In this document: one piece after another, positions 2,027-60,478 of the stretch | How positions within the stretch are numbered: the stretch's first letter is position 1 | How the letters are laid out: every line of letters starts with the position of its first letter | NCBI GenBank assembly: GCA_024276675.1 | Contig: JAJRWT010000046.1 | Span: 17,433 to 81,432, forward strand | From: Myxococcota bacterium | GTDB lineage: Bacteria; Myxococcota_A; UBA796; JAFGLY01 | Direction of reading: 5' to 3' | DNA length: 64,000 nt | Program-made: the position numbers and the translations under genes | The notes under the pieces: model-generated | Seen by the model: the letters and a program-made list of their open reading frames with translations, nothing else | Databases searched by the model: none | Told to the model about the DNA's origin: nothing

Positions 2027-3877
2027 ATGGCCGGCACCGGAGTTTTTTCCATAATGCCAGTCGATGCCCTTCAGGACCCCGCTGCCCGCCCGGAAGCTGC
2101 CAGTCCGCCCTTGCTGCCAGAGAGCATCCGTCTGCGCCTGGCCGGACTGCTGACCCCAGGGAGCGCCCTCGCTGCCACCTTGTACCTGCTGGCTTGCATC
2201 ATCGTGACGTGGCCCACCGTGCTATCACTCGGCTCGGTGCTATTGGGGCATCCGGGAAACGACACATGGAACCATGTCTGGGGCTTCTGGTGGGTTTCCA
2301 GGGAAATCCTCGATGAAGGGCGCTGGCCCGGATGGACGGACCTCATCGCCTACCCCAGGGGCGGCTCCCTGTACTTCATCGACACCTTCAACGCCCTGCT
2401 CACTCTGCCCTTGCAGGTCGTTTTCGGACCGGTGGTGGTCCACAACCTGATCATTATGGGTTCGCTCTGGTTTTCGGCTTTCTCTGCATGGCTGCTGGCC
2501 CGGCACGTGGCCAGATCCGAAGCCGCCGCGCTGGTGGCGGGTATGATCTATGGCTTCAGTCCCCACATACTGGGCCAGGCCGAAAACAGCATCACGGAAA
2601 CCATCAACACGGGCTGGTTGGCTCTCTATCTCCTGGCCTTGTTCAAGCTCCTGGAAAAACCATCGCTTCGGCGTGGACTGGGGGCCGGTGCCACCCTGGT
2701 GCTCTGCGGATTGTCCAATTGGTACTATGGGCTCTTTTGTGCCCTGGCCACCGTGGTCCTGGCGCTCCACCGCCTTCTTCGGCATCCCTATGCGCTCCAG
2801 TGGAAGAAGATCCTGGGACTGGGGCTCTTGGGGGCCATCCCATTCGCACCAATCGCCCTGGGGGGGCTGCTCCTCCTTCAGAGCAGCATGTCCGCCCCCG
2901 ACGCACTTGTGAACCGGGATCCGGATTTCGTATGGAACTCGTTGCTCTACCACAACATGACCGACATCCAGTGTCTCTTCAGGCCTGGCCACTTCCAGAG
3001 CCCGAATCTCAAGGCCCTCTATGGCGAGAATCTCTTGATCGTCACCTACCTGGGATGGGTGGCTCTCCTCATGGCCGCCTGGGCGGTCTGGCGATGGAAA
3101 TGTCGTCACGAGACCGGCCCATGGTCCTGGTTGGCACTGGTATTCTCGATCTTTGCATTGGGACCATACCTGTACGCCTTTGGCCACTACGTCGAAGTGG
3201 GCGGGAGGCGGATCCCCCTGCCATTCCTGGCTTTCTTCGAGGCCTTGCCCATCTTCTCCAGGATTTCCCACCCCTTCAGATTCGTGGTGGTGGTGGACCT
3301 CTCCCTCGGTGTACTGGCGGCCTATGGTATCGCCCAGTGGGGGCGGGTGGAAAACCGCAGGATATGGCAGTTGAGCCTCCTGGGCTGCGCCCTGGTGCTG
3401 GCTGAAATCTGCCTGTTTTCACCAGCCCGGGTTCCGCTGACCACTTCCTCGGCCAGCGTCCCGCCGGAATACCAGGTGCTCGACCAGGATGAAAGTGATG
3501 GCGCAGTACTGGACCTTCCCATAGCTGTTCCAATCCTGGAGAGGGCAGTCTACAACTGGTACCAGCTCTTCCACCAGCGCCCCATCCCCTACAGTCTCAA
3601 CGAGCCCCTGCCTCCGGCCATCAAGAACAACCAGCTCTGCCAGTTCCTGCTTCGTATCGAAGCGGGGCGCGCACGACTGCTTCCCAGGACCCTTCCAGAC
3701 CTGGAGTTGGTCATGGCCACCCGCATCCTGGCACGACAGGGCTTTCGTTATATCGTGATCCATGAAAGGCTCTACCCCGAGATCAAGCGCCAGCAGGTCC
3801 ATTCCCTGATGGATGCTCTGCTGGGTCCGGCCCTCCTGGACGACGGAGGCGACGTCACCATCTATGTGCTGCCATGA
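2027..3877 (+). CDS. polytopic membrane protein, putative GT-C-type glycosyltransferase
   Basis: 616 aa. Many hydrophobic segments over about the first 430 aa, then a soluble C-terminal domain. Early loop motif GNDTWNHVWGFWW. The stop overlaps the next start (ATGA at 3874). The family was not identified by eye. Confidence 0.55.
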   Translation: MAGTGVFSIMPVDALQDPAARPEAASPPLLPESIRLRLAGLLTPGSALAATLYLLACIIVTWPTVLSLGSVLLGHPGNDTWNHVWGFWWVSREILDEGRWPGWTDLIAYPRGGSLYFIDTFNALLTLPLQVVFGPVVVHNLIIMGSLWFSAFSAWLLARHVARSEAAALVAGMIYGFSPHILGQAENSITETINTGWLALYLLALFKLLEKPSLRRGLGAGATLVLCGLSNWYYGLFCALATVVLALHRLLRHPYALQWKKILGLGLLGAIPFAPIALGGLLLLQSSMSAPDALVNRDPDFVWNSLLYHNMTDIQCLFRPGHFQSPNLKALYGENLLIVTYLGWVALLMAAWAVWRWKCRHETGPWSWLALVFSIFALGPYLYAFGHYVEVGGRRIPLPFLAFFEALPIFSRISHPFRFVVVVDLSLGVLAAYGIAQWGRVENRRIWQLSLLGCALVLAEICLFSPARVPLTTSSASVPPEYQVLDQDESDGAVLDLPIAVPILERAVYNWYQLFHQRPIPYSLNEPLPPAIKNNQLCQFLLRIEAGRARLLPRTLPDLELVMATRILARQGFRYIVIHERLYPEIKRQQVHSLMDALLGPALLDDGGDVTIYVLP

Positions 3878-5898
3878 AGAACTCCATCCTCAAGACCATT
3901 CTCGAGTTGCTGGCAGTCCTGACCTTCTACTTCCTGGCCTCCAGCCTCATGACCTGGCCCACGGCCATGCACATGAACGAGATCGTGTTGGGGGGAGGGG
4001 AACTGGGGGGCTGGCTGTGGCGCTACTGGTGGCACTTCCTGGAGGCCCAGGCCCTGGGCCAGATGGATCTAGCCCCCTATGAAAAATGGCGTGCCCTCAT
4101 CGCGCTGGGCCGCTACCCGGAGACCGGCAACGTCCTGGACGTCATTTTTTTCTCCTGGCCCCTGTCCTATGTCGTGGACTTTCCCGCCCACTACAACCTC
4201 AAGGTGTTGACCATACTCACGCTGGACGGTCTTTGCGGCTACGTACTGGCTCGCCACTTCGTGAGGGGGCGGCTGGTGGCGTTGGCGGCCGGCCTTCTGG
4301 CCCTGGTGAATCCACTGGTCATTCAGGACATCAACGGTTCGGGGCTCAGGCAGACCATCCTCTGGTGGCTTCTGCTCTACCCGGTTTTCCTGGACCGCGC
4401 GGTGAGGCGGCAACGTCTCACAGAGATGCTACTGGCGGGTGTCTGCATGGGCATGGCTGCGGCATGGTACTGGTTCTATGGGCTTTTTGCGGGGCTCTAC
4501 ACCATACTCTACGCCCTCTGGCACCTCCTCACTCGCCGGATGGGCGTCCGCGGCATGCTGCGAGGTGTTCTCCCCACGGTGTTCGTGGCCGTGCTGTTGG
4601 CGTTCCCTTTCATACAGCCCTACCTGGATACCGATGAAGGCGGTGGCAGCAATCTTCCCGAAATGTCCTTCTTCCTGGCATTCCCACGCTATGAAACTAT
4701 ACTCACCGCGCCCATGAGGCCCAAGTCCTACGAAGAAAACGTGCTGGCATCGCTGCACAGGACGATTCGTTCCAGTTGGGCAGCCGACTACCTGGTCTAC
4801 CCCACCAGCGAGCGGACCATGCCCATCGTGGTCTTTCTGGCGGGCATCCTCCCGGCCTTGTTTCTACGGCGCAGGCCCTTCTGGCTCCTGGTGCTGCTCC
4901 TGTTCTATGCCTGTAGCCTGGGGCCCTTTCTCAAGCTCCAGACCCTGCGGGACGCCAGCGAGGTCCTGGTGTTGGGAGAGCAGTGGGTGATCCGCCTTCC
5001 CTATACCTTGCTCTTTCGATGGGTGCCCGGGATAGCCCGCCTGTTCGCTCCCTATCGCTTCGCCGCCATGGTAGTGGTGGCATCGGTGGTGTTGGTGGCA
5101 TCCGGCCTGGACTCTCTGCCATCATCCACCAGGAAGTGGGCGTTCGTCAAGACTGCGGCTTGCATCCTGGTGATACTGGCAGCCATGCTCCAGATGACCT
5201 ACCGCTTCGAGGTCCAGGAGGTGCCCGACGACTCCTACCAACCATCCAGGTGGCGTGCGCCCATCAAGGTGAGTCGGATCGAGATACCGGAGTTCTACCT
5301 GGAGTTGGATGACTCTCGCCTGGAAGGCATTATCGAACTGCCCCTGGAGCGGGAACAGGATCTCCTGTGCTACTACCAGGTTATTCACCGGCAGAGAGTT
5401 TTCCGATCCTGGGCCACCTCGGGCGCCCTTCCTCCTATTCTTTCCAGGGGAGGGGGCGGGGACGCCGGAGATCGTCTGCGCTACCTGGGCCAACAGCTTC
5501 CACTGGATTTTCCCGGCTCCCAACTCCTGGAGAGGATCTCCACACATCCCAATGATCTCCCGGTGAGCGAGATCGACCGCGGAGAGCTGGCGCAACTGGC
5601 CCGAGCGGGGAGCTTTCGCTACATGATCGTTCACGAACGTGGATATTACCTGGCCAATCCCTATCACGGCCCGGTCCTGTACCGAGACGCCGTTCAACGT
5701 CTTGCCGCCGGACTGGGATTGAAACCGGACGAAGTGGTGGAACATGCGTGGGTAGACTACCCGGGAAACCAGTACAACGTTCCGGGAGGCCCCGTCTACA
5801 TACCCTGGACGGCCGAAGAGGTGGCCCTGCCGTACCAGGAGATGCCCAGGCGCTACTATATGTCGATTTTCGACCTCTCCTCGCTCCTGGAGTCCTGA
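3874..5898 (+). CDS. polytopic membrane protein, paralog of the preceding gene (putative GT-C-type)
   Basis: 674 aa with the same architecture as the preceding gene. Equivalent early loop GGELGGWLWRYWWHF. Soluble C-terminal domain ending ...FRYMIVHERGYY, compare FRYIVIHERLY in the upstream paralog. Confidence 0.55.
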   Translation: MKNSILKTILELLAVLTFYFLASSLMTWPTAMHMNEIVLGGGELGGWLWRYWWHFLEAQALGQMDLAPYEKWRALIALGRYPETGNVLDVIFFSWPLSYVVDFPAHYNLKVLTILTLDGLCGYVLARHFVRGRLVALAAGLLALVNPLVIQDINGSGLRQTILWWLLLYPVFLDRAVRRQRLTEMLLAGVCMGMAAAWYWFYGLFAGLYTILYALWHLLTRRMGVRGMLRGVLPTVFVAVLLAFPFIQPYLDTDEGGGSNLPEMSFFLAFPRYETILTAPMRPKSYEENVLASLHRTIRSSWAADYLVYPTSERTMPIVVFLAGILPALFLRRRPFWLLVLLLFYACSLGPFLKLQTLRDASEVLVLGEQWVIRLPYTLLFRWVPGIARLFAPYRFAAMVVVASVVLVASGLDSLPSSTRKWAFVKTAACILVILAAMLQMTYRFEVQEVPDDSYQPSRWRAPIKVSRIEIPEFYLELDDSRLEGIIELPLEREQDLLCYYQVIHRQRVFRSWATSGALPPILSRGGGGDAGDRLRYLGQQLPLDFPGSQLLERISTHPNDLPVSEIDRGELAQLARAGSFRYMIVHERGYYLANPYHGPVLYRDAVQRLAAGLGLKPDEVVEHAWVDYPGNQYNVPGGPVYIPWTAEEVALPYQEMPRRYYMSIFDLSSLLES

Positions 5899-12232: not shown

Positions 12233-12405
12233 GGAGAACCCCATAAGTCTAGTGTTTGAAAAAGTTGGCCCCCAGGTGCGTTGAGCAACAAAAAATCCTG
12301 GGGGGTAATCGTTTTTCCAGGCTATTCAAGATGCACTGAGGCAATCTTGAACTCTATGTCGCCCCCTGGAGTCTCCGCTCCCGGGGCGTAACCCCGGGGT
12401 TGGCG

Positions 12406-14922
12406 ATGACCCGTTTCTCGGCATTTCTGTTTTCGACGCTTGCCGCTGTTGCTTTTGCCTTCAGAGCCCAGGCGCAGGTACCGGCTGCCATGGAAAACAA
12501 CCTGTCAGACCTGGACCTCGTGCCGGTGATGGACTTTCCGGCTCCCGACACAGGCGCTCTCCTGGCCGAAGATGAAGACCGCGAAGCCCAGGGCTTGGCA
12601 CCGCGTTTTGCCGTACCCAACGCCACGTTCATCACTCCCGACACCCACGGAAGATGGCAGGATCTGGGCGACGGCACGCTAATGTGGAGGCTGCGCATCT
12701 CGTCTCCCGGGGTTGAAAGCATCAACCTCGGGTTCACCTCTTATTATATGCCCCGTGGCGGTAGCCTGTGGCTCTACAGCTCCGACCTGAAAGACATCCT
12801 TCCCAGGCCCTTCGGCCCTGAAGAAAACCAACCCCATGGCGAACTCTGGACCCCTGTAATCCAGAGCGACGACATCGTGGTAGAGGTCACTCTACCGGAG
12901 CAGGACGTATCCCGACTGCGCCTGGAACTTACAGCGGTCAACCTGGGCTACCGGGGCTTCGGCGCGGCTGGCGACAAGCAGGGCGCATGCAACGTGGACG
13001 TGGTCTGCCCTGAAGGCGACGACTGGCGCGACGAGATCGCCTCCGTGGCGGTCTACTCCACGGGCGGCTACCTGTTCTGCACCGGCTTCATGGTGAACAA
13101 CACCGCCCAGGACGGAACCCCCTACTTCCAGACCGCCTACCACTGCGGGATCCGGGCGGGAAACGCCAGCTCCCTGGTGGTGTACTGGAACTATGAAAGC
13201 CCCACCTGCGGAGCGCTCTCCGGGGGTTCGCTTACCGACTACCAGACCGGGGCAACCTACCTGGCGGGTTACTCCAGCTCCGATTTCACCTTGGTGGAGC
13301 TGGATGACCTGCCCGACTCTTCCTGGAATGTCTCCTACGCGGGATGGGACAACTCGGGAACCGATGCCACGTCGGCGGTGGGTATCCACCACCCCGACAC
13401 CGACGAAAAGGCCATCAGTTTCGAATACGACCCCACCACTACCACTTCCTACTTCGGCAACAATTCGCCCGGGGATGCCAGCCATGTGCGCATAGAAGAC
13501 TGGGACGAAGGCACGACCGAGAGCGGTTCTTCGGGGTCGCCCTTGTTCAACCAGGATCACAGGGTCATAGGCCAGCTTCACGGCGGATACGCCTCGTGCA
13601 GCAACGATCTATCCGACTGGTACGGCAACTTCTCCGCCTCCTGGGATGGGGGCGGCTCCAGCAGCAGCCGCCTGCGCGATTGGCTGGACCCAACGGGTTC
13701 GGGGGTCAGCCACCTGGACACCTACTCCCCCTGGAACAGCGGCGGCATCGACGTCAGTCCCGACTCCGACATGGAAAGCGAAGGCCCGGTGGGTGGGCCC
13801 TTCTCTCCCGACAGCGTCACCTACTTCGTGGAAAACACCGATTCCAGTTCCCTGGACCTGGAAGTGACCACAAACCGCTCCTGGCTGGAAGTCGACCGCA
13901 GCTCTACGACCATCTCCGCAGGTTCCACGGTGGCGGTCACGGTGTCACTTGCCGCGGAAGCCCTCTCTCTTGGTGCCGGCAGCTATTCCGGCACCGTGTA
14001 TTTCAACAACCTGAGCACCGGCGAGGGCGACGCTACGCGCACGGTGTCCTTGACGGTTGGCAGCGACGAGCTGATCTACGAGTGGGATCTGGACACGGAT
14101 CCCGGCTGGTCCACCCAGGGTGACTGGGCCTGGGGCGTTCCCCAGGGGCAGTCCGGCACCCGCGGGGCTCCCGACCCTACCTCCGGTTACACCGGCTCCA
14201 AGGTGTACGGCTACAACCTGTCAGGTGGCTACTCCTCCGACATGGAAGAAAAGCACCTCATCTCCGAGGCCTTCGATTGTTCGGACCTGAGCGGGGTCAC
14301 CCTGGGTTTCTGGCGCTGGCTGGGCGTGGAAACCTCCAAGTACGACCATGCATCCATAAGTGTCAGCCGGGATCGCTCCAACTGGACCACCGTCTGGGAA
14401 AACAGCGACACCCTGGACGACGGAGAATGGACTTGGCAGGAGTACGACATCTCCTCCGTGGCCGATGGTGAGCCCACGGTATTTCTCCGCTGGACCATGG
14501 GCAGCACCGACAGGAGTGTCGAGTACTGCGGCTGGAACATCGACGACATCCAGATATGGGCCGTGGAGTCCTGTGGCGATGCCGACTCCGACAGCTACCA
14601 GGACGCCACCTGCGGCGGAGATGACTGCGATGACTCGCAGCCCAGCGTCAATCCCGGAGCTCAAGAGCGTTGCAGCGACGGCACCGACAACGACTGCGAC
14701 GGTCTGATCGACGCCCAGGATCCCGACTGCTCCGACACCGGCAATCCCGGCGGCCCCGGAGACACAGGCAGCTACGGCGCTCCGGGAACCCTGGACACCG
14801 GCTCCAGCAAGGGCAGCACCAACTGCCAGGGCTGCAACCCCGTGTCCGGCGGACCAGCCGGAGGTCTCCTGGCCCTACTGATTGGCGCATGGTTGGCCAT
14901 GCGGCGCAGAGCGGTGGCCTGA
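12406..14922 (+). CDS. secreted trypsin-like (S1, lysyl-endopeptidase-like) serine protease with MYXO-CTERM-type anchor
   Basis: Signal peptide MTRFSAFLFSTLAAVAFAFRAQA. Catalytic-triad context TAYHCG / DFTLVELDD / GSSGSPLF. A beta-sandwich-like middle domain, one MopE-like motif (DCDDSQPSVNPGAQERCSDGTDNDCDG), and the C-terminus GCNPVSGGPAGGLLALLIGAWLAMRRR. Confidence 0.8.
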   Translation: MTRFSAFLFSTLAAVAFAFRAQAQVPAAMENNLSDLDLVPVMDFPAPDTGALLAEDEDREAQGLAPRFAVPNATFITPDTHGRWQDLGDGTLMWRLRISSPGVESINLGFTSYYMPRGGSLWLYSSDLKDILPRPFGPEENQPHGELWTPVIQSDDIVVEVTLPEQDVSRLRLELTAVNLGYRGFGAAGDKQGACNVDVVCPEGDDWRDEIASVAVYSTGGYLFCTGFMVNNTAQDGTPYFQTAYHCGIRAGNASSLVVYWNYESPTCGALSGGSLTDYQTGATYLAGYSSSDFTLVELDDLPDSSWNVSYAGWDNSGTDATSAVGIHHPDTDEKAISFEYDPTTTTSYFGNNSPGDASHVRIEDWDEGTTESGSSGSPLFNQDHRVIGQLHGGYASCSNDLSDWYGNFSASWDGGGSSSSRLRDWLDPTGSGVSHLDTYSPWNSGGIDVSPDSDMESEGPVGGPFSPDSVTYFVENTDSSSLDLEVTTNRSWLEVDRSSTTISAGSTVAVTVSLAAEALSLGAGSYSGTVYFNNLSTGEGDATRTVSLTVGSDELIYEWDLDTDPGWSTQGDWAWGVPQGQSGTRGAPDPTSGYTGSKVYGYNLSGGYSSDMEEKHLISEAFDCSDLSGVTLGFWRWLGVETSKYDHASISVSRDRSNWTTVWENSDTLDDGEWTWQEYDISSVADGEPTVFLRWTMGSTDRSVEYCGWNIDDIQIWAVESCGDADSDSYQDATCGGDDCDDSQPSVNPGAQERCSDGTDNDCDGLIDAQDPDCSDTGNPGGPGDTGSYGAPGTLDTGSSKGSTNCQGCNPVSGGPAGGLLALLIGAWLAMRRRAVA

Positions 14923-21416: not shown

Positions 21417-22541
21417 GTGTTGATCAGACCCCAGTTGCCTCGCTTCAGTCTCCTGGCCGCCCTGCTGCTCCTGCTTGCGTGGGTGGGACTGCCCTGCGAG
21501 CAGGCCCGGGCCGCCGAACCTTTCATCGCGTTCGAAAACGATGGCAGCGGAAACGCACCCGACTCCCGTTTCCAGTCGTGGCACGCCGAGTTGGAACCCT
21601 TTGGCAGCTACGGTGAAAGTTGGTTCTTCCTGGTGCAGGCCGACGACGGCGGAGTGCTCTTCGCACTTTCCTCCGTCACCAACCTGGGCCTGCGCACCTT
21701 CGACGGCAGCTACGACCTGGAATACTACGAACCCGACGGCACGGCCCACCGCGTCCACCAGGAGTGTCGCCGCGACCAGGTCAGGGGTTCCACCCAGAGC
21801 ATGGACATGTACGTGGGAGCCTCCCGTGTCTGGGGGGGCGGAAAAAGCTACCACATGAGCATCCAGGAAGGCGGCGTCGTGCTGGACCTGAACCTGGAAA
21901 ACGTCCTCTCTCCATACAAGTTCGGCGACGGCAAGGTCAGGTTCGGCGAAGATCTCAGCTCCGAGTGGACCCTGTCCCTGGATGCCCCCCGGGCCCGTTC
22001 CTCCGGCAGCTTGACCATCGACGGCAAGACCTTCGACCTGGCGGGCAACGCCTACCACGACCACGGCTGGGCCACCATCAAGCTTCCGGACTTCCTGCGC
22101 AAGTGGTTCACCTTGAGGATCTTCGACGAGAGCTACACCGTGGTGCTGCACCACCAGTACTTCACGGAGCGCTACGGCAAGGCCGACAACAAGTTCGGCC
22201 TGCTGGGGCGTGACGACCGCATCGTCGCCGCCACGCGGAACTTCCTCTTCACCCCCACCTCCTGGACCCGGCACAGTACCGGCAAGGATCTGCCGGCATC
22301 GGCGGAGCTGAGCATCAACGCGGGCGGCTACCAGGTACACGGGACCATCAGCGATCTTCGTCTGCTGGATGCCGTGGACGTCCTGGCCCAGTTGAGTTGG
22401 CCGGTACGAACCGCCATAAGGGCTTTCTACAGCGATGTCTGGCTCATTCGCCTCCTTGGTCGCTACGAGTTGGATGTGACCGATTCCACTGGCACCCGAC
22501 ACATCTCCGGCCAGGCCATCGTCGAAGCCAACTACTATTGA
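21417..22541 (+). CDS. secreted protein, unknown function
   Basis: GTG start after GAAAGGA. Signal peptide MLIRPQLPRFSLLAALLLLLAWVGLPCEQARA. The beta-rich sequence has a possible AttH/CrtC-like lipocalin flavour, which is not verifiable by eye. Confidence 0.6.
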   Translation: MLIRPQLPRFSLLAALLLLLAWVGLPCEQARAAEPFIAFENDGSGNAPDSRFQSWHAELEPFGSYGESWFFLVQADDGGVLFALSSVTNLGLRTFDGSYDLEYYEPDGTAHRVHQECRRDQVRGSTQSMDMYVGASRVWGGGKSYHMSIQEGGVVLDLNLENVLSPYKFGDGKVRFGEDLSSEWTLSLDAPRARSSGSLTIDGKTFDLAGNAYHDHGWATIKLPDFLRKWFTLRIFDESYTVVLHHQYFTERYGKADNKFGLLGRDDRIVAATRNFLFTPTSWTRHSTGKDLPASAELSINAGGYQVHGTISDLRLLDAVDVLAQLSWPVRTAIRAFYSDVWLIRLLGRYELDVTDSTGTRHISGQAIVEANYY

Positions 22542-22555
22542 TCCTGGCAGCCTTC

Positions 22556-24967
22556 ATGAGTCTTCTTCCCGACGCCTGGCCAATCGCCACCAGCAGCTCA
22601 TTCGCCGTGGGTGCCCGGGCTCGGCTCCTGCTCCTGGCTCTTGCCATCTCCTGCCAGACGGCAAAAGAAGATACCGTGGGCGCACCCAGCCTGCTGCCCG
22701 AAATAGACAGCTTGAGCATCGGGCCGCTGACATACCTGGACAGCAGGAGCGGTTCGGGCCTGGCATCCACCCAAGTCACCAACAATGGCAACAGCACGCT
22801 GCGTCTGCTGGAGTCCAACTTTGAAGGGGATGGTTCCAGCAAGATCGCCTTGCTGGAAAAACCCAACCCCGGTACCGACATCCCCCCCGGAGAAACCTTC
22901 CTCATCAAGGTGGGCGTGACCTCCAGCCTTGGGCAATGGTCCAGCAAGGTCTTCGAGCCCGAGCTGGTGATGGAGCTGGAGGTCATGAACGAGTTTTCCG
23001 CCGGTTGTGCCGGGACGACCCTGGAACCCAGCGGTCAATTCTACGAGCTGCGCATACCCATAGTGATGGACCTCGTCTGCGACATAGACGGCGATGGCCA
23101 GGACGCCTCGGAGTGTGGAGACGGTGATTGCGACGATACCGACCCGCAGATCAACGGCTATTCGCCAGAACTCTGCGACGGAATCGACAACGACTGTGAC
23201 GGCCATGTGGACAACGACGCCTGGGACGCCTCCCTTTGGTACAGCGACCAGGACTCCGACGGCTATGGCGACCCGGAACAGGCGATCCTGGACTGCCAGC
23301 ATGTGACCGGCCGCGTGGATGTTTCAGGTGACTGCGACGACTCCGATGCCAAGGTCAACCCCGATGCCACGGAACTCTGCGACGGAATCGACAACGACTG
23401 CGACTCCGAGATCGACGAAGCCGACGCCGCCGATGCAATCACCTGGTTCGCCGACGAGGACTCCGACGGCTACGGCAATCCTCACTCAACCACCACGGCC
23501 TGTGAGCCTCCATGGGGATTCGTTGAAGACGACCTGGACTGCGACGACGGGGATCCGCAGGTGAACCCCGACGCATTCGAGCTGAACGACGGCACCGACA
23601 ACAACTGCGATGGCGACCTGGACTTCATACGCCTCCCCAGGGCCGATGCCTCCATGCTGGGCGTCTCTCCAGGCGATGCCACCGGCAGGAGCGTATCTTT
23701 TGCTGGCGACCTGGACGGCGATGGGCTGGACGACATCCTGCTGGGCGCTCCAGGACTGTCCGGCAGGGGCGGGGCCTACCTGGTGGCGGGAACCTCGTGC
23801 GACGGCAGCGATGAGCTGTGCGGCGAACCCTTCGACCTGCCGGATTCAAGGGCGGTGTTCTCCGGCGCCGACGAGGGGGATCTATGTGCCGCGGCCCTGT
23901 CCTCCGCCGGTGATGCCGACGGCGACGGCCTGGACGACGTGCTCATCGGAGCACCTGGCGCAGATCTCGGGGGCTTGGATTCAGGGGCGGTCTACCTGCT
24001 GTACGGACCTCTGAGCGGCTCCATCGGACCGGCAGAGGCTTCCACGACGTTCTGGGGTGAAGAAGCGGGAGATGGAGCGGGCTCCGCCGTTGTCGGCGCC
24101 GGCGACCTGGACCTGGACGGGCGGGCTGACCTGTTGATGGGCGCCCCGAGAGCCAGCGGCGGGGCTCGCGCCGGTGGAGCCGTCTACCTGTTTCTGGGTT
24201 CCGGGCCGGGCGACGTGTCCCTGGGGGGAGCCGACGCTCTCCTGCTGGGCGATGCCCGGGGCGGCATGGCCGGCTTCAGCCTGGCGGCGGGCTTTGACGT
24301 GGACGGCGATGGCCTGGATGATTTCCTCGTGGGAGCACCGGGCGATGGCTTGACCGCTTCGCAGGCGGGTGCCGCCTACCTCGTGCCTGGCCCCCTGCCC
24401 CCTTGGTCAACGCTGGCCGATGCTGGAACCCGCATCCTGGGAGAGCAGGAGGGGGACAACGCTGGTTGGAGCGTTGCCGGCGCCGGCGACATCGATGGCG
24501 ATGGCCACGACGACCTGTTGATCGGAGCCCCCCAGGCCGAACCCGGGGGCGTCGCCTACCTGGTGCCTGGCAGCGTCGAACTTCCCTACCTTTTCAGGCG
24601 CCGCCTGTCGGGTGTGGGGATCCGCCTGGAAGGCGAGTCGGATGGAGACCAGGCGGGTTGGTCGGTTGATGGTGCCGGCGACCTGGACGCCGATGGATTC
24701 AACGACCTGGTGATCGCTGCACCCGGTCATGATCGGGAAGCCTACGATGCCGGTGCTGTCTACGTGCTGTTGGGGCCTGTTTCCGGCACCCTGGGCCTGG
24801 GGCTGGCCGACGTGGTACTCCTTGGCGACAGTGACGGCGATGCCGCCGGCTCCGATGTCGCCGGCTGGGGCGACCTGAACGGCGATGCGTCGCCGGATCT
24901 TCTACTGGGTGCCTCCGCCGATGTCGCCGGAAGCTCCGGTGCCGCCTATCTGCTGCTGGGTTGGTAG
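22556..24967 (+). CDS. FG-GAP repeat protein with three MopE-like metal-binding motifs
   Basis: ATG 22556. Three DCDDxDxxxNPxAxExCDGxDNDCD motifs, then many FG-GAP units (GDLDGDGLDDILLGAP, GDADGDGLDDVLIGAP, GDIDGDGHDDLLIGAP and others). Confidence 0.8.
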   Translation: MSLLPDAWPIATSSSFAVGARARLLLLALAISCQTAKEDTVGAPSLLPEIDSLSIGPLTYLDSRSGSGLASTQVTNNGNSTLRLLESNFEGDGSSKIALLEKPNPGTDIPPGETFLIKVGVTSSLGQWSSKVFEPELVMELEVMNEFSAGCAGTTLEPSGQFYELRIPIVMDLVCDIDGDGQDASECGDGDCDDTDPQINGYSPELCDGIDNDCDGHVDNDAWDASLWYSDQDSDGYGDPEQAILDCQHVTGRVDVSGDCDDSDAKVNPDATELCDGIDNDCDSEIDEADAADAITWFADEDSDGYGNPHSTTTACEPPWGFVEDDLDCDDGDPQVNPDAFELNDGTDNNCDGDLDFIRLPRADASMLGVSPGDATGRSVSFAGDLDGDGLDDILLGAPGLSGRGGAYLVAGTSCDGSDELCGEPFDLPDSRAVFSGADEGDLCAAALSSAGDADGDGLDDVLIGAPGADLGGLDSGAVYLLYGPLSGSIGPAEASTTFWGEEAGDGAGSAVVGAGDLDLDGRADLLMGAPRASGGARAGGAVYLFLGSGPGDVSLGGADALLLGDARGGMAGFSLAAGFDVDGDGLDDFLVGAPGDGLTASQAGAAYLVPGPLPPWSTLADAGTRILGEQEGDNAGWSVAGAGDIDGDGHDDLLIGAPQAEPGGVAYLVPGSVELPYLFRRRLSGVGIRLEGESDGDQAGWSVDGAGDLDADGFNDLVIAAPGHDREAYDAGAVYVLLGPVSGTLGLGLADVVLLGDSDGDAAGSDVAGWGDLNGDASPDLLLGASADVAGSSGAAYLLLGW

Positions 24968-24993: not shown

Positions 24994-26052
24994 TCATCGC
25001 CCACAAGCACCGGAGATCCTGATGGTGCCGGGGGGGCCTTCCATGACCTGGCCCACCAGGGTGGCATGGACCCCGGTGGCCTGGCAGCGGCGCAGGTATT
25101 CATGGGAGTCGGATGGGTCCACGGATACCAGCAGACCGCCGGATGTCTGGGGATCGCAGAGTATGTGAAGGGTGGTTGGGTCCAGATCCTGCAAGTTCGC
25201 CCTGTGTTCGACCCAGCGCCGGTTGGACGCCATGCCCGCGAAGTCGGACGCCAGTCTTGCCGCTTCCAGGGCTCCGTCCAGTAGTGGTATGGCGTCGGCG
25301 TCGATGCACAGAGCAACCCCGCTTGCCTTTGCCATCTCCATCCCGTGGCCCAGGAACCCAAAACCGGTGATGTCGGTGAGAGCGTGAACGCCCAGCCCCT
25401 GGCAGGCCTGGGCAGCGGCCCGGTTGGTCTGCACCATGGAAGCCAGCATGGCGCGACGGGGGGCTGGTGGGAGAAGTCTTCGCTTGAGAGCCGTGGCCAT
25501 GACGCCGGTCCCCAGTGGCTTGGTGAGCAGCAGTCGGTCGCCGGGCCTGGCATGGGAGTTGGTGAGGATGTGGTGGGGATGTACCAACCCGGTGACGGCG
25601 AGCCCGTATGTGAACTCCGGCCCCTTGACCGTATGGCCTCCCAGGGGCGTCACGGCGTCTTGTGCCAGCACCTTCATTCCCCCGGCAAAGGTACGGGAGA
25701 GAGTGTGCAAGGACAGGCCGGTGGCGGGAAAAGCGCAGACGGCCAGGGCCGTGATGGGGCGGGCTCCCATGGCGTAGATGTCGGAGAGGGCGTTGGCCGC
25801 TGCCACCTGGCCGAAGTCGAAGGGGTCGTCCACCACGGGGGTGAAGAAGTCCACGGACTGGACAAGGGCGACTTCGTCGTTGAGACGCCAGACACCGGCG
25901 TCGTCGAACGTACCACCGCCCACCAGCAGGCGCGGGTCTTGCGCCTGCGGAAGCGTGTCGAGCACTGCGTGCAGGTCCCCCGGACCCAGCTTCGACGCTC
26001 AACCAGAGCAACTCACGAGTTGGGTGAGCTTTTCGATATCTTCTCTCGTCAT
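24994..26052 (-). CDS. selD: selenide, water dikinase (selenophosphate synthetase), selenocysteine-containing form
   Basis: Track ORFs 24994-25965 and 25999-26343 belong to one gene: MTREDIEKLTQLVSCSG-[TGA 25999-26001]-ASKLGPGDLHAVLDTLPQ. The TGA aligns with Cys17 of E. coli SelD (GAGCGCK), and the Lys three residues later is kept. SelD motifs DDAGV, VDFFTP and ANALSDIYAMG follow. Confidence 0.9.
25957..25996 (-). promoter_or_regulatory. candidate bacterial SECIS stem-loop downstream of the selD UGA
   Basis: On the minus strand, 2 nt after TGA: GTCGA-A-GC...GCTCGAC forms a 7-bp outer stem with one bulge. It encloses GGTCC-GGG-GGACC, a 5-bp apical stem with a G-rich loop. The fold was done by eye only. 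Confidence 0.5.
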
Positions 26053-26181
26053 GGTGGCTTTGTTGTTAATCAGTTCAATTGCCGCGTCAAGGCGGCGTGA
26101 TCCCCGGGCTGGGAACGAAAAGGTCGCAGCGGCAACCCATTCAGGACAGCGATAATTGCTTTTCTTCCAGGAGTACCAGAG

Positions 26182-27630
26182 ATGCAGGCCATTATCATGG
26201 GGGCAGGACCGGCGGGGCTCACGGCAGCCTATAGCCTGGCCAGGCGCGGCCACGCCAGCATTACCCTGGAGGCGGCCGAAGCCGTGGGTGGCATCTGCCG
26301 CACCATCACCCACGAAGGCTACCATTTTGACCTTGGTGGGCATAGGTTCTTCACCAAGTTCGACGAGGTACGGGACCTGTGGTACGAGATCCTGGGCGAC
26401 GACCTGCTCCTTCGACCCCGAATGTCACGTATCTACTACAGGGGCAGGTTTTTCGACTATCCCCTGAAGGCCTCCAACGCCCTGACCAACCTGGGTGTCC
26501 TGGAATCGGTTCGTTGCACCGCTTCCTATGCCCGGGCCAGGCTGCGACCCCGAGGAACGGAGCGCAACTTCGAAGAGTGGGTATCCAATCGCTTCGGCGA
26601 CAGGCTCTTCCAGATCTTCTTCAAGACCTACACGGAAAAGGTCTGGGGCATTCCGTGCAGCAGTATCGGTGCCGAGTGGGCATCCCAACGAATCAAAGAC
26701 ATGGAATTGAGCACCGTGCTCAGGAACACCCTGCTGAACACTCCGCTATCCAAGGCTTTCAAGAGCCTTGGCCCCAACAACGAGACCAAGCAGGTCTCAT
26801 CGCTCATCGAGCAGTTTCTCTATCCCCGCACCGGGCCGGGGCTCATGTTCGACACCCTGCGAGACAAGGCAGAAGCCCTGGGCGCCAGGATCTTGACCCA
26901 GCACAGGGTCACCCGCTTGGAACATGACGGGCAGCGCGTGTTGGCCGCGCGGGTGCCCGGGCCTGATGGCTCCCAGGATGAGCAACGCTTCGAAGGCAGC
27001 CATTTCCTGTCCTCAATGCCGCTCACGGAGCTTGTCTTGTCGTTGGACCCCCCCGCGCCAGGTTCCGTACGGGCCGCTGCCCGCGCCCTGCGCTTCCGGA
27101 ACCTGATCACAGTGGATATCATCGTCGATCATCCCAATCTCCTCCCCGACACGTGGATCTACGTCCACGATCCAACCCTTCGGCTGGGAAGGATACAGGT
27201 GTTCAAGAACTGGTCTCCATACATGGTGCCGGATCAATCCAGGTCATCCCTGGGGCTGGAGTATTTCTGCTTCTCCGATGATCCCCTCTGGTCCATGAGC
27301 AACCGGGATCTGCTGGCCATGGGAACAGGAGAGATCCGCCGAACCGGCCTGCTCCGCGGAGCCCCGGTGCTCGGTGGCACAGTGGTCCGGGTGCCGGGCG
27401 CCTACCCCGTCTACGAAATGGGCTACAGGTCCCACCTGGATACAATCAGGAGCTACCTGGGCCGTTTCCGGAACCTACAGGCCATGGGTCGTGGGGGAAT
27501 GTTCAAGTACAACAACGCGGATCACTCCATGCTGACGGCTCTTCTGGCAGCCGAGAACCTGTACGGAGCCGGGCACGACATCTGGCGAGTCAACACCGAC
27601 AGCTCCTACCACGAGATTCGTCGAGACTGA
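26182..27630 (+). CDS. FAD/NAD(P)-binding oxidoreductase (amine-oxidase / UDP-galactopyranose-mutase-like fold)
   Basis: AGGAG RBS. N-terminus MQAIIMGAGPAGLTAAYSLARRGHASITLEAAEAVGG is the GxGxxG dinucleotide-binding fold. Paralog of the gene at 45489. Confidence 0.7.
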   Translation: MQAIIMGAGPAGLTAAYSLARRGHASITLEAAEAVGGICRTITHEGYHFDLGGHRFFTKFDEVRDLWYEILGDDLLLRPRMSRIYYRGRFFDYPLKASNALTNLGVLESVRCTASYARARLRPRGTERNFEEWVSNRFGDRLFQIFFKTYTEKVWGIPCSSIGAEWASQRIKDMELSTVLRNTLLNTPLSKAFKSLGPNNETKQVSSLIEQFLYPRTGPGLMFDTLRDKAEALGARILTQHRVTRLEHDGQRVLAARVPGPDGSQDEQRFEGSHFLSSMPLTELVLSLDPPAPGSVRAAARALRFRNLITVDIIVDHPNLLPDTWIYVHDPTLRLGRIQVFKNWSPYMVPDQSRSSLGLEYFCFSDDPLWSMSNRDLLAMGTGEIRRTGLLRGAPVLGGTVVRVPGAYPVYEMGYRSHLDTIRSYLGRFRNLQAMGRGGMFKYNNADHSMLTALLAAENLYGAGHDIWRVNTDSSYHEIRRD

Positions 27631-31176: not shown

Positions 31177-31479
31177 GGGCAGTATTCTGTAGGCCGTAGG
31201 GGAAAAGGCTGCCGAAGGCTGCCGGCTCACGCCGTCGCGAGGGGCGTTCCGCAGCAGGCATAAGCCTTCCCGACGGATCCTATCAATAAGAGTCCCCAGC
31301 CAAAGCGGCAAAATCGCCGTTTTCCGGAAACCCGTGGAAGACATCCAAACCTCCTTGCTCTTGTGCTACCCTGATAATACCTTCAACAGTTGCAACCCAC
31401 CCGTGAGATCCTGTGAGTGGGCAGATCATGTACAGGTTCTCCGCTATTTGTCCGAGCATCAGGTTTTTGGGGAGTGCGT

Positions 31480-32613
31480 GTGTTCAACGCCATAGAACGT
31501 TCGAATATTTCATTGCTGCTTTTCTCTCTGGGACTCCACCTGTTGGCAACGGGTTGCCAGTCAGCTCCTCCTTCGACCGATTCCGGATGCGATTCCGGCG
31601 ACACCTCCCCCTGCACAGACGACACCTCCCGACGGGATACCTCCACTACCGACACCGCACCGGAATATCCAGACAAAGACGGCGACGGCTACACCGCCGA
31701 TGTGGATTGCGACGACGGCGATCCGGCGGTCTATCCGGGCCTGGACCAGGACGGCGATGGCTACGATGTCTGCTTTCCCGACTGCGATGACACCGATCCC
31801 ACGGTCCTGAGCGTCTGTCTTGCCGTCGTGGAGGCGGGGAGCTTCGTCATGGGGAGCCCCGAAACCGAAGTTGGCCGATGGATCGACGAAACCCAGCACA
31901 TGGTAACGCTCACCCGGAACTTCTACGTGGGGATATGGGAGATCACCCAGGAACAGTTCGAACACTTCGCCGGGTACCAACCAAGCTACTTCGCCGGGTG
32001 TCCTACCTGCCCCGTAGAGACCATCAACTGGCACGAGGCCGCTGCCTTGACCAACGCCATTTCCGAGGCAGCCCACCTGGACCGGTGCTACCAGTGCGTC
32101 GGGAGCGGTTCTTCTTCGGAATGCAGCCCCGACCCGTCTTTTGCCACCATCTACGACTGCCCCGGCTACAGGCTTCCCACCGAAGCAGAGTGGGAGTACG
32201 CCGCCAGGGCTGGTGAAACCGCCGCCTTCAGCAACGGCGGAAGTCTCTCTATCGGTACCGAAAACGACTGTGGCGGCGCCCTGGAACTCGACAACGGCGC
32301 TCTGTTGGACGACGTCGCCTGGTATTGTGGGAACAGCGAAGGCAGCACCCGGCCAGTCGCTCAACTGGCCCCCAATGCCTGGGGCCTTTTTGACACCAAT
32401 GGGAGTGTGTGGGAGTGGGTGGACGACTGGTATGATCTGTACGCTGGCGACGAGGTGGACCCGGTGGGGCCATCGTCCGGCTACCTGAAATCAAAGCGAA
32501 GCGGTTCCTGGAACTTCGATCCCTACTACTCGCGTTTTGCAATTCGCGACAGCTACAACCCCACCGCATCGTACTACTACACGGGTGTTCGTGTGGCCCG
32601 CACGGTTCCATGA
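31480..32613 (+). CDS. FGE/SUMF1-family (formylglycine-generating-enzyme-like) lipoprotein with MopE-like motif
   Basis: GTG 31480 after GGGAG gives MFNAIERSNISLLLFSLGLHLLATGC. The track start is 31417. Motifs [49 protein letters not shown] and RSGSW. Confidence 0.8.
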   Translation: MFNAIERSNISLLLFSLGLHLLATGCQSAPPSTDSGCDSGDTSPCTDDTSRRDTSTTDTAPEYPDKDGDGYTADVDCDDGDPAVYPGLDQDGDGYDVCFPDCDDTDPTVLSVCLAVVEAGSFVMGSPETEVGRWIDETQHMVTLTRNFYVGIWEITQEQFEHFAGYQPSYFAGCPTCPVETINWHEAAALTNAISEAAHLDRCYQCVGSGSSSECSPDPSFATIYDCPGYRLPTEAEWEYAARAGETAAFSNGGSLSIGTENDCGGALELDNGALLDDVAWYCGNSEGSTRPVAQLAPNAWGLFDTNGSVWEWVDDWYDLYAGDEVDPVGPSSGYLKSKRSGSWNFDPYYSRFAIRDSYNPTASYYYTGVRVARTVP

Positions 32614-32993: not shown

Positions 32994-33221
32994 ATGAACT
33001 GGCGCGAGCACATCTCAGTCGATCCGCAAGTCTGCCACGGAAAGCCGTGCGTGGCCGGAACGCGTGTCATGATATCAGTCATCCTGGACAATCTCGCCGC
33101 CGGTCAGTCGGTCGAGGAGATCCTTGGGTCGTACCCGGCGGTGACGGACGAGGCAGTCTGGGCAACGCTGGCCTACGCGGCCGACCTCGCCCGCGAGAGG
33201 CTCGTGCCGCTGTCGGCGTAA
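32994..33221 (+). CDS. DUF433-family protein (putative antitoxin)
   Basis: AAGGAG RBS. ISVDPQVCHGKPCVAGTRVMISVILDNLAAGQSVEEILGSYPAVTDEAVWATLAYA matches the DUF433 pattern. Confidence 0.8.
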   Translation: MNWREHISVDPQVCHGKPCVAGTRVMISVILDNLAAGQSVEEILGSYPAVTDEAVWATLAYAADLARERLVPLSA

Positions 33222-33227
33222 GTCGTC

Positions 33228-33581
33228 ATGAGATTCAAGGTCGACGAGAACCTCCCCGCTCAGTGCGTCGGTCAGTTCCGATAGGCCGGGCATGACGCGG
33301 TGTCGGTACACGACCAAGGGCTCACCGGCTCACCAGATCCACGGATCGCCGAGGTCTGCGCGGATGAACGACGCGTGCTCGTGTCGCTGGACCTCGACTT
33401 CGCGGACATTCGGTCGTACCCACCGTCGGAGTCGCCTGGCATCATTGTATTCCGCTTGAGAAGTCAGGATGCGACAACTCTCCGACGCGTTGTCGGTCGT
33501 CTACTGGGCCTGCTCCCCGACGAGTCCCCGGTTGGTAGGCTCTGGGTGGTGGAAGAAGACAAGGTAAGGATCCGTGAGTAG
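33228..33581 (+). pseudogene. DUF5615 (PIN-like, Mut7-C-like) putative toxin gene interrupted by in-frame TAG
   Basis: ATG 33228 gives MRFKVDENLPAQCVGQFR-[TAG 33282-33284]-AGHDAVSVHDQGLTGSPDPRIAEVC...SLDLDFADI. The whole reading matches DUF5615 across the stop. The track only reports the GTG-restart fragment at 33300-33581. Confidence 0.75.
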
Positions 33582-34013: not shown

Positions 34014-34259
34014 ATGGGCTCCTGGCAGTTGCACGACGCCAAGAACAGGCTGAGCCAAGTGATCGCGGAAGCGAGAGACGCGGCCCAGATCATCACCGTC
34101 CGCGGACAAGAAACAGCGGTCATCCTCTCGATGGACGAGTATCGCCGCCTGACCAAGCCCCGCAAGAGCCTCGTTGCGTTCCTGAGAGGGTCACCGCTCG
34201 CGGGTGTGGAACTCGACATCCAACGGACTGACGATCTGGGTCGGGGGGTGGACCTGTGA
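34014..34259 (+). CDS. phd: Phd/YefM-family type II antitoxin
   Basis: AAAGGAGG RBS. MGSWQLHDAKNRLSQVIAEARDAAQIITVRGQETAVILSMDEYRRL is the Phd/YefM N-terminal pattern. The stop overlaps the vapC start (GTGA). Confidence 0.85.
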   Translation: MGSWQLHDAKNRLSQVIAEARDAAQIITVRGQETAVILSMDEYRRLTKPRKSLVAFLRGSPLAGVELDIQRTDDLGRGVDL

Positions 34260-34681
34260 GCTTCCTCCTGGACACCTGCGTCCTGTCGGAAACCCTACGA
34301 CCCTTGCCTGAGACCGCGGTGCTCGAGTGGCTCGAGGCCCAGGATGAGCCTCGGCTGTACATGAGCGTCTTGTCCCTCGGGGAACTCCAGAAGGGAATCG
34401 CGAAGCTCGAAGACGGCCGACGCAAGAGCGAACTGGTAGAATGGGTGGACCAAGCCCTCGTGCCCCGGTTCGGACGCCGCCTGCTGCCAATCGATCCCGC
34501 CGTAGCGTCTGCGTGGGGGCGTCTCACGGCTCAGTCCGAAAGACGAGGAACGCCGGTTCCCGTGATAGATGGCCTGATCGCTGCGACCGCCCAGGTCCAC
34601 GAACTAGCTGTCGTGACGCGCAACGTGAAGGACTTCGCGAAACTCGATGTTGCGATCATTGACCCGTGGACGAACGCGTAG
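34256..34681 (+). CDS. vapC: PIN-domain ribonuclease toxin VapC (FitB-like)
   Basis: LLDTCVLSE...SVLSLGELQKG...IDGLIAATAQVHELAVVTRNVKDF...IDPW carries the conserved PIN acidic residues. It is coupled to phd by a 4-nt overlap. Confidence 0.88.
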   Translation: MSFLLDTCVLSETLRPLPETAVLEWLEAQDEPRLYMSVLSLGELQKGIAKLEDGRRKSELVEWVDQALVPRFGRRLLPIDPAVASAWGRLTAQSERRGTPVPVIDGLIAATAQVHELAVVTRNVKDFAKLDVAIIDPWTNA

Positions 34682-45488: not shown

Positions 45489-46859
45489 ATGAATAGTGGC
45501 CCAAGCAGATTGCCCGGCGGTCCGCCAGGTGTAGCCGGCTCTGAACCCTTGGTACTGGGCGCCGGACCAGCGGGGCTTTCCTTTGCATGGCTGGCCAGGC
45601 GTTCCGGCATGAACCCCCTGGTAATCGAAAAGACATCCAGAATCGGAGGCATGGGGCGCACCTTCACCCATGGCGCCCACAGGCACGACTGCGGTGCCCA
45701 TCGCTTCCACGATCAGAATCCCGTGGTCACCGACCTGCTTCGGTCCCAACTTGGCATCCGCTTCAGTCCCGTCCAACGACCGAGCTGCATTCTGGACAGA
45801 GGGCAGACCTTCCATTTCCCCCCCTCTCCCCGCGACATGCTCCTGGGCGCCGGCCTCGGTCACCTGCCCCACACCATCCTGGAGTTCTTGAAGACCCGCG
45901 GACCCATCTCACCGCCGGCCAACTTCCAGGAGGCCGTGGAGTCCACCTTCGGCCCCACCCTGGCGAGCAGGTTTCTGCTTCCCTACACCGAAAAGCTGTG
46001 GGGCCTGCCCGGGCACCAGCTATCTCCCCGGGTTGCCACTGCCCGCCTTTCGGGGTTCCGCCTTCGAGAAGTCCTGGCCCAGCTCAGGGCCTGGCCAGGC
46101 AGACCAGCCTTCCATATCGAGGGTTCTTTCCTGTACCCCGCCACCGGCATCGGCGAAATCGTGGAAGCCATGGCCTCCAGCCTCGGCCCCGGCAGCATCG
46201 TCACCAGGGCCATCCCCGATACCCTGCTCACAAGAGAAGGGCGTGTCATCGCCCTGCGCCTGCGTGACGGCCGGCTCATTCCCGTGGGTGGACCGATCAT
46301 CTCCACCATGCCTCTTCCAGAGTTGTTGGCGGCCCTTGGCGACGCCCTGCCCGACTCGCTGCGCAGGGGCGGACCGGAGCTGCGTTTTCGTGCGCTCAGG
46401 TTGGTTTTTCTGGTTCTCGACCAGCCTGGTTTGACCCAGCACGCCACCATTTACTTTCCCTCGAGGCGAATATGTTTCACCAGGGTCTCCGAACCACGCA
46501 ACCGCTCCCCGGCCATGGCTGCCCCGGGGCAGACGGGCTTGCTGGTGGAAGTTCCCTGCTTCGAGGGCGACCATTTATATGATCTGCCAGCCCGCCAGCT
46601 CGTCGCCAGGGTATTGCGCGACCTGGTACACGTGGGACTACTGAACCCTGCCAGGGTGCTTTCGTGGAGCCACCATTTGCTCCCCCATGCCTACCCGGTC
46701 CAATCCACCGGAATCGAGCAGCGGCGCGCCCGGATCCTCGATGCCCTCTCCTCCCTACGCAACCTCCACCTGCTGGGGCGCAGCGGGCGTTTCCTGTATG
46801 GCCACCTGCACGACCAGGTCTCGGCAGCCGCCAGGCTCGTGTCTTCCATGACTCGTTGA
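45489..46859 (+). CDS. FAD/NAD(P)-binding oxidoreductase, paralog of 26182-27630
   Basis: LVLGAGPAGLSFAWLARRSGMNPLVIEKTSRIGGMGRT...GAHRFH parallels IMGAGPAGLTAAY...VGGICRT...GGHRFF in the paralog. Confidence 0.7.
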   Translation: MNSGPSRLPGGPPGVAGSEPLVLGAGPAGLSFAWLARRSGMNPLVIEKTSRIGGMGRTFTHGAHRHDCGAHRFHDQNPVVTDLLRSQLGIRFSPVQRPSCILDRGQTFHFPPSPRDMLLGAGLGHLPHTILEFLKTRGPISPPANFQEAVESTFGPTLASRFLLPYTEKLWGLPGHQLSPRVATARLSGFRLREVLAQLRAWPGRPAFHIEGSFLYPATGIGEIVEAMASSLGPGSIVTRAIPDTLLTREGRVIALRLRDGRLIPVGGPIISTMPLPELLAALGDALPDSLRRGGPELRFRALRLVFLVLDQPGLTQHATIYFPSRRICFTRVSEPRNRSPAMAAPGQTGLLVEVPCFEGDHLYDLPARQLVARVLRDLVHVGLLNPARVLSWSHHLLPHAYPVQSTGIEQRRARILDALSSLRNLHLLGRSGRFLYGHLHDQVSAAARLVSSMTR

Positions 46860-60347: not shown

Positions 60348-60478
60348 CTCCCGGACATGAGGGGGGCGCGGAGGACGTCGCGGGCTCATTGCCATGAGCG
60401 GGTCCCTGAGGGAGGCCCCGTGTTGTAGAATGCCCGGGACCACACGATGTGGCGGCAAACCAGCACGGAGTTTCCCAG

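Follow-up and report, generated by a model that had tools for sequence, protein, structure and literature searches.

The 64,000-nt stretch of DNA analysed here (hereafter the window; positions 17,433 to 81,432 of contig JAJRWT010000046.1, from a Myxococcota bacterium) carries on its minus strand a selD gene with a UGA in frame near its beginning, which raises the question whether this codon ends translation or is read as selenocysteine (Sec). An initial interpretation made from the letters of the window only (the sequence-only reading) had favoured Sec, with the UGA in the place of the catalytic Cys and a composite hairpin directly behind it. We likewise consider it very probable that the gene is an intact Sec-type selD, in which UGA codon 18 is decoded as Sec by way of a minihelix that acts as a selenocysteine insertion sequence (SECIS). 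Comparison with homologues shows the identity of the gene, the position of the UGA and translation on both sides of it, and we infer Sec insertion, the binding of SelB and the presence of selA, selB and selC in the genome. The selD of the window thus appears as a mis-annotated but ordinary Sec-type SelD, which supports the sequence-only reading except for the outer stem of its hairpin.

Sec-containing SelD has long been established and accounts for ~19% of prokaryotic SelD genes. Catalogues of Sec-type SelD genes are available (PMC1794560, PMC4561486), and PMC13188914 describes SelD as ranking second in size among the selenoprotein families of prokaryotes. The window selD leaves the present picture of selenium biology unchanged. 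Its main value lies in annotation, because the public record of the gene is a truncated protein of 323 aa that lacks the catalytic loop.

Identity of the gene and of its codon 18

The minus-strand ATG at 26052 opens a frame of 353 codons, both TGAs counted, which reads MTREDIEKLTQLVSCSG, TGA (26001..25999) and then ASKLGPGDLHAVLDTLPQ... in the same frame, until it stops at the TGA at 24996..24994. All of these coordinates, already proposed in the sequence-only reading, were verified on the sequence. The full-length coding sequence (CDS; 24994..26052, minus strand) consequently comprises 352 residues, the predicted Sec18 included, plus the terminal TGA.

For profile searches the UGA was replaced by Cys. 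The product matches the curated equivalog model of SelD (TIGR00476; Pfam domains of the family PF00586 and PF02769) over its full length and above the trusted cut-off, with 357.1 bits where 125 are required and with positions 1-310 of the 311-position model covered. It also covers nearly the whole of model NF002098 (331.5 bits, cut-off 299). It aligns with the structure of Escherichia coli SelD (3u0o) at E = 1.3e-71 over residues 6-341, and with the Aquifex aeolicus SelD structures 2yye/2zod at E = 1.5e-52. In the pairwise alignment with 3u0o, the window protein is identical to E. coli SelD at Asp51, Asp68, Asn87, Asp91 and Asp227 (E. coli numbering), residues that we take, from the E. coli and A. 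aeolicus structures, to bind metal and ATP. By these alignments the gene is an intact selD (selenide, water dikinase / selenophosphate synthetase). It is only 40-50% identical to characterised members of the family, and its nearest relatives (61-66%) are unannotated metagenomic sequences.

The in-frame UGA (codon 18; 25999..26001, minus strand) stands in the alignment opposite Cys17 of 3u0o and opposite the Cys carried by the crystallised A. aeolicus proteins 2yye/2zod, and Lys21 of the window SelD stands opposite E. coli Lys20, three residues after the UGA. The codon thus falls exactly where the sequence-only reading had put it, at the catalytic Cys in the Gly-rich N-terminal loop, which also has the Lys at its expected place. 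According to mutagenesis in E. coli, Sec or Cys at position 17 and Lys20 are both required for SelD activity. The position of the Sec in the N-terminal loop is that of A. aeolicus SelD, a member of the same family whose crystal structures (2yye/2zod/2zau) have Cys in place of Sec, and the peptide that follows is likewise the same (...SGCAAKVGPGDL... in 2yye, ...SGUASKLGPGDL... in the window). E. coli SelD differs in that its catalytic Cys17 is followed by a second Cys at +2 (C-G-C-K) and no SECIS is present, whereas the window has Sec followed by A-S-K.

Homologous loci were collected from one genome per GTDB species, which yielded 80 loci, 78 of them including the N-terminus. The best relatives among these genomes are metagenome-assembled genomes of Gemmatimonadaceae at ~50% identity, and none exceeds ~51% overall. 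At the codon aligned to the window TGA, 52 of the 78 loci, from many phyla, have TGA and the other 26 have TGC or TGT. An alignment of Sec- and Cys-type orthologues, which had been proposed along with the sequence-only reading, therefore places UGA and Cys codons of different organisms in one and the same column. Closer relatives were found in metagenomic DNA from JGI, ENA and Logan; these are six distinct sequences of 61-66% identity, and all six have TGA at the same codon.

These relatives bear directly on the explanation that the gene is in truth Cys-type and that its TGA (in place of TGC or TGT) arose through a mistake in sequencing or assembly, or through a nonsense mutation of very recent date. 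The sequence seems to come from a draft assembly, on a contig of 105,858 bp, and TGC and TGA are one base apart. However, TGA and the same hairpin behind it recur in all six distinct nearest homologues, which come from independent metagenomes, and the window keeps the hairpin codons GGT-CCG-GGG-GAC-CTG, which Cys forms do not maintain. We regard an error or a fresh mutation as extremely improbable.

The 17 codons in front of the UGA (MTREDIEKLTQLVSCSG; 26002..26052, minus strand), which include Cys15, are lost from automatic gene calls and are conserved in the nearest homologues. All six of these read M-[TS]-[RK]-[ED]-E-[IL]-L-K-L-T-H-L-V-[SA]-C-A-G-TGA-A-S-K-L-G-P-A-D-L-H, with in-frame stops just 5' of the shared ATG. 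Compared with one of them (L084), the window N-terminus is identical at 12 of 17 residues, and differences to the relatives upstream of the UGA include synonymous ones (Arg AGA/CGC, Thr ACC/ACG, Ser AGT/AGC). The protein is therefore conserved on either side of the UGA, as 17 residues upstream and as the SelD domain downstream. Because of this conservation with synonymous differences, and because of the upstream in-frame stops, we conclude that the stretch 5' of the UGA is translated and that ATG 26052 is the start. The possibility entertained in the sequence-only reading that translation truly starts internally at 25965, with no conserved region upstream, is refuted by the same 17 codons. The residue at 25965, described there as an internal Met, is a GTG codon and corresponds to Val31 of the full frame, although the site is indeed the start chosen by the caller of open reading frames (ORFs). 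Judged on sequence comparison, a TGA at the catalytic codon together with these comparative data goes far beyond chance.

The consequences for the databases are as had been forecast. The ORF list of the window contains a 323-aa ORF (24994..25965, minus strand) with a GTG start and without the catalytic Sec/Lys loop, and the public record of the gene is the same 323 aa only (P0001, NCBI source; 100% identical to the truncated ORF). The best 120 protein-database matches to the window SelD are all 292-335 aa long, in keeping with a systematic loss of the part that ends at the UGA. These 120 homologues appear to be truncated likewise, and Sec-type SelD of this clade is accordingly under-annotated.

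If UGA coded for Trp or Gly throughout the genome, as in genetic codes 4 and 25, an amino acid would also stand at codon 18; this idea has the in-frame TGA itself and nothing else in its favour. UGA ends 12 of the 23 Pfam-supported genes of the window, selD among them, which argues against any genome-wide reassignment. Moreover, no other credible in-frame TGA was found in the coding frames of the window, and its G+C content is 60-65%. This explanation is effectively refuted and deserves practically no credence. Among 35 likely genes of the window, the stop codon is TGA in 21 and TAG in 14, and TAA was not seen.

The Cys upstream of the UGA forms part of a C-x-x-U motif, in which Cys15 (26002-26010) precedes Sec18 (25999-26001) by three residues. 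The motif characterises the clade of the window SelD, in contrast to A. aeolicus 2yye, which lacks this Cys. It is also found in L001-L042, L044, L068, L072, L075, L079 and L081-L093 (L numbers denote homologous loci), and Cys-type relatives have C-x-x-C instead. SelD of the E. coli-like kind places its second Cys at +2 (C/U-G-C-K), and some Sec-type SelD lack a second Cys altogether. Cys15 and Sec18 could conceivably form a selenenylsulfide.

The hairpin behind the UGA

Downstream of the UGA, an exact match to the pattern GGUCC-GGG-GGACC lies at 25986..25974, and an additional G.U pair extends its stem to 6 bp. The resulting candidate SECIS minihelix (GGGUCC-GGG-GGACCU; 25973..25987, minus strand) has a G-rich loop of 3 nt and lies over the codons GGT-CCG-GGG-GAC-CTG for Gly-Pro-Gly-Asp-Leu. 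The base of its stem is 11 nt and its loop 17 nt away from the UGA. By analogy with known bacterial elements the minihelix is presumed to be the SelB binding site.

Its dimensions agree with the bacterial SECIS model (PMC13188914), which allows loops of 3-9 nt and upper stems of 4-16 bp, asks for a G at loop position 1 or 2 and for a distance of 16-37 nt between UGA and loop, and requires a minimum free energy (MFE) of -7.5 kcal/mol or lower. The window has a 3-nt loop (GGG, hence with G in both of these positions), a stem of 6 bp, to which a terminal U.G pair can add a seventh, a distance of 17 nt, and an MFE of -8.2 kcal/mol for a 17-nt or -19.6 kcal/mol for a 47-nt segment. As in Sec-type bacterial SelD, the element lies inside the CDS directly 3' of the UGA. 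It likewise resembles the SECIS of E. coli fdhF and the bSECISearch consensus, in which a stem-loop follows just 3' of the UGA within the ORF and its small apical loop begins with G. It differs from the fdhF element in its loop (GGG, not GGUC) and in its stem of only 6 bp, and no bulged U was identified.

The strongest indication of a function comes from the comparison of Sec and Cys forms. Sec-type homologues share the register of this hairpin, which in most of them takes the form GGUC(C)-loop-(G)GACC over Gly-Pro-x-Asp-Leu, and where the stem varies it still pairs (GUCCAAC/GUUGGAC in L048, AGGUC/GACCU in L045, AGGGC/GUCCU in L062). The mean local free energy is -6.7 kcal/mol in 55 Sec forms versus -3.7 kcal/mol in 26 Cys forms (Mann-Whitney p = 2e-7), and among distinct genes with the peptide G-P-x-D-L the four core pairs (GGUC/GACC) are present in 34 of 35 Sec forms versus one of 10 Cys forms (Fisher p = 1e-7), both statistics being uncorrected for phylogeny, which counts against our interpretation. 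The pattern recurs across several phyla. The sole Sec exception (L043) forms another and longer stem there instead, with -13.3 kcal/mol over the segment. In the six nearest homologues a run of 15 nt, GGGTCCGGCGGACCT, is invariant while the flanking synonymous sites vary, and this run differs from the window minihelix, with its GGG loop, by one loop base.

The Gemmatimonadaceae permit the same comparison within a single family, in which Sec and Cys SelD alternate with identical flanking peptides (ARCAG-U/C-ASKMGPGDL). Their selD-selC loci (L001-L042 and others) share with the window both C-x-x-U and a GGUC...GACC minihelix over G-P-G-D-L. Six loci are Cys forms (L004, L008, L009, L011, L013, L024), and in five of these the hairpin has been lost by synonymous changes (GGC, GGA, GAT). 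The remaining one, L009, keeps the hairpin and looks like a recent switch from Sec to Cys with a remnant SECIS. The family hence provides a natural illustration of a SECIS that is kept at synonymous sites only as long as the codon is UGA. Since Sec and Cys forms differ so clearly over the same peptide (34/35 versus 1/10), the comparison shows, at the level of sequence, that selection maintains the hairpin only in UGA-bearing homologues.

Several further results weigh against this interpretation of the hairpin and of the gene. Compared with shuffled sequences, none of the folds is significantly stable (z = 0.05 for 65 nt; z = -1.3 for the 47 nt with -19.6 kcal/mol; z = -1.7 for the 17-nt minihelix UGGGUCCGGGGGACCUG with -8.2 kcal/mol). 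The bacterial SECIS model is permissive, in that a compliant hairpin follows 104 of the 1454 TGA triplets (7%) of this window of 62% G+C. Rfam returned no match at the gathering threshold for the whole window, nor at E <= 10 for 25900-26060. Covariation is weak: 83% are paired versus 26-64% in slid controls, two pairs show double changes, and 37 of 500 shuffles reach the covariation score. RNAalifold found no consensus structure for 20 Sec-type sequences. Finally, selA, selB, selC and ybbB were not found in the 64-kb window. We set folding stability aside as evidence, because the z-scores are not significant in this G+C-rich context, and attribute the weak covariation to a stem that is almost invariant and to shifts of register in some homologues.

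The composite hairpin of the sequence-only reading has a lower part in addition to the minihelix. This outer stem (span 25956..25996, minus strand) pairs GUCGA(A)GC (25996..25989) with GCUCGAC (25962..25956), begins 2 nt after the UGA and is part of the MFE fold of the window. Both stems are thus present as proposed, but the outer one is not conserved even in the nearest relatives: L084, L088 and L091, like the Gemmatimonadaceae loci, either lack it or have something else in its place, and this contrasts with the lower stem of consensus bacterial SECIS. At such a short distance from the UGA, the ribosome would enclose most of the 5' arm of the outer stem during decoding of that codon. From this comparison the outer stem is probably not a functional part, and the SECIS consists of the apical minihelix only.

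An alternative apical register of the MFE fold, CGGG-GGA-CCUG, was also considered and is unsupported in homologues with GGU or GGC as the third loop codon. A search of the window for further copies of the minihelix gave a single match with one mismatch (14843), which has no upstream TGA.

A second, longer type of SECIS occurs among the homologues ~13 nt further 3', over L-A-Q-V-L (e.g., CUGGCGCAG-GUU-CUGCGUCAG). It lies ~27-47 nt after the TGA and replaces the G-P-x-D-L minihelix in L065, L068, L072, L076 and L079, while L045 seems to carry both types.

Proposed decoding of the UGA and the selenocysteine machinery

SelD converts ATP and selenide into selenophosphate, AMP and Pi, and its selenophosphate is needed by SelA to make Sec-tRNA(Sec). 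In the mechanism that we favour, translation would start at ATG 26052, the UGA at 26001..25999 would be decoded as Sec, and the protein would run to the TGA at 24996..24994. By analogy with E. coli fdhF, SelB-GTP-Sec-tRNA(Sec) would bind the minihelix at 25987..25973 and deliver the Sec-tRNA once the A site is occupied by the UGA, which lies 11 nt upstream, thereby outcompeting release factor 2. Sec18 and Lys21, in the flexible N-terminal loop, may then carry selenium to the ATP site for the synthesis of selenophosphate. Because SelD makes the selenium donor for its own Sec, expression of a Sec-type SelD would be self-reinforcing and selenium-dependent.

The genes required for such decoding have to be sought outside the window; within it, ARAGORN reported no tRNA and Pfam scans of ~40 ORFs yielded no SelA, SelB or YbbB. 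Among the homologues, a tRNA-Sec (anticodon TCA) lies on the same strand ~36 nt after the selD stop in L001, L003-L010, L014-L042, L051 and L064, and within ~120 nt downstream of selD in L044 and L075. Since tRNA-Sec adjoins selD there, the Sec trait is evidently live in related SelD lineages. The adjacency is found neither in the window nor in its nearest homologues; where the Gemmatimonadaceae have a tRNA-Sec ~36 nt after selD, the window has no tRNA and a convergent FG-GAP/MopE gene that ends 26 nt on. We nevertheless infer, on good grounds, that selA, selB and selC are located elsewhere in the genome.

The tRNA-Sec next to selD is kept even at some Cys-type loci (L004, L008, L009, L024).

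The lack of Sec machinery genes in the 64-kb window could alternatively indicate a relic, i.e., a lineage in which the machinery was lost and the UGA terminates, leaving at most a dead, truncated SelD initiated from GTG 25965. In line with this, selC is not located beside selD as it is in Gemmatimonadaceae, and databases list the 323-aa form only. Absence from 64 kb, however, says little for a genome of several Mb. The 352-codon frame is intact with every conserved catalytic residue present, and the start has been conserved, as have the 17 codons upstream of the UGA, in which synonymous changes are seen. Cys-type relatives quickly lose the SECIS stem at synonymous sites; here it is perfect. 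In addition, a truncated product would lack the counterparts of Sec/Cys17 and Lys20, both of which are generally known to be required for activity. A relic or pseudogene is consequently quite unlikely, and we retain the intact Sec-type gene as the explanation of the locus.

It is also possible to imagine that the UGA is read through without Sec, the hairpin promoting the incorporation of Cys or Trp, or readthrough of some other near-cognate kind. We know of no bacterial precedent for readthrough of this kind. It does occur, aided by a stem-loop adjacent to the UGA, in insect SPS1 of Hymenoptera that lack selenoproteins (PMC4561486), and the Sec machinery of the host of the window selD is itself a prediction. 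The hairpin, on the other hand, fits the SelB-type model in loop sequence and spacing, and related Sec-type selD genes adjoin tRNA-Sec. Readthrough without Sec is very unlikely on these grounds. Two more far-reaching scenarios together have only a very slight chance of being true. In the first, the host would lack selA, selB and selC, and hairpin-aided readthrough without Sec would make its selD the bacterial counterpart of hymenopteran SPS1-UGA. The second, milder one would have the Sec machinery kept solely for SelD, with a C-x-x-U selenenylsulfide protecting or regulating the enzyme in an aerobic lineage of high G+C content.

Read as a Sec-type gene, selD marks its host as a selenocysteine user and prompts a search for other selenoprotein genes truncated at UGA. 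In the window we searched for an in-frame TGA flanked by coding sequence with a high G+C content at third codon positions (GC3), a filter that would miss Sec codons very near an N-terminus, and the three candidates obtained were all rejected, since each lies either antisense to a real gene or in front of a start codon.

Surroundings of selD

The neighbours of selD in the window are unrelated to it. On one side a divergent gene for an amine-oxidase-like flavoprotein (26182-27630, plus strand) leaves ~130 bp between the two start codons, and on the other the convergent gene with FG-GAP/MopE repeats has its end at 24967, which leaves 26 nt to the stop codon of selD. A second amine-oxidase-like protein binding flavin adenine dinucleotide (FAD; PF01593/PF13450 in both) is encoded at 45489-46859, likewise on the plus strand, and no link of the two proteins to selenium is evident.

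All nearest homologues (L081-L093) have TATACT exactly 6 nt before the ATG of selD and lack a Shine-Dalgarno sequence, so that their selD transcripts may well be leaderless. The corresponding region of the window (AACAAAGCCACC-ATG) has no TATACT box and no clear Shine-Dalgarno sequence, and a sigma-70 scan found no promoter there. The gene neighbourhood in L081-L093 is entirely different from that of the window and consists of OsmC, a 33-aa ORF, selD, a protein of ~468 aa with a weak DUF4139 match, a methyltransferase and Dus.

Several large, probably secreted proteins are encoded in the window (12400-14922, 22397-24967, 31417-32613, 36041-37132 and 40800-42986). They combine MopE-type Cu-binding motifs, FG-GAP repeats, and trypsin-like or FGE-sulfatase (SUMF1-like) domains, and the two FGE-sulfatase paralogues have in common an N-terminal Asp/Gly-rich 'DGDGY' region. 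Very long ORFs with coding-like GC3 and without a Pfam match are located at 60410-64000 (plus strand; at least 1196 aa, running off the end of the window), at 50333-53377 (minus strand; 1014 aa) and at 2027-5898 (plus strand; two adjacent ORFs of 616 and 674 aa).

Two small gene pairs at 32994-33581 and 34014-34681 look like toxin-antitoxin modules and sit in a stretch that is otherwise poor in clear genes (32.6-36.0 kb). In one, a DUF433-like ORF has a small ORF behind it, and in the other a Phd/YefM-like ORF overlaps a PIN-domain (VapC-like) gene (Pfam PIN, E = 1.9e-14).

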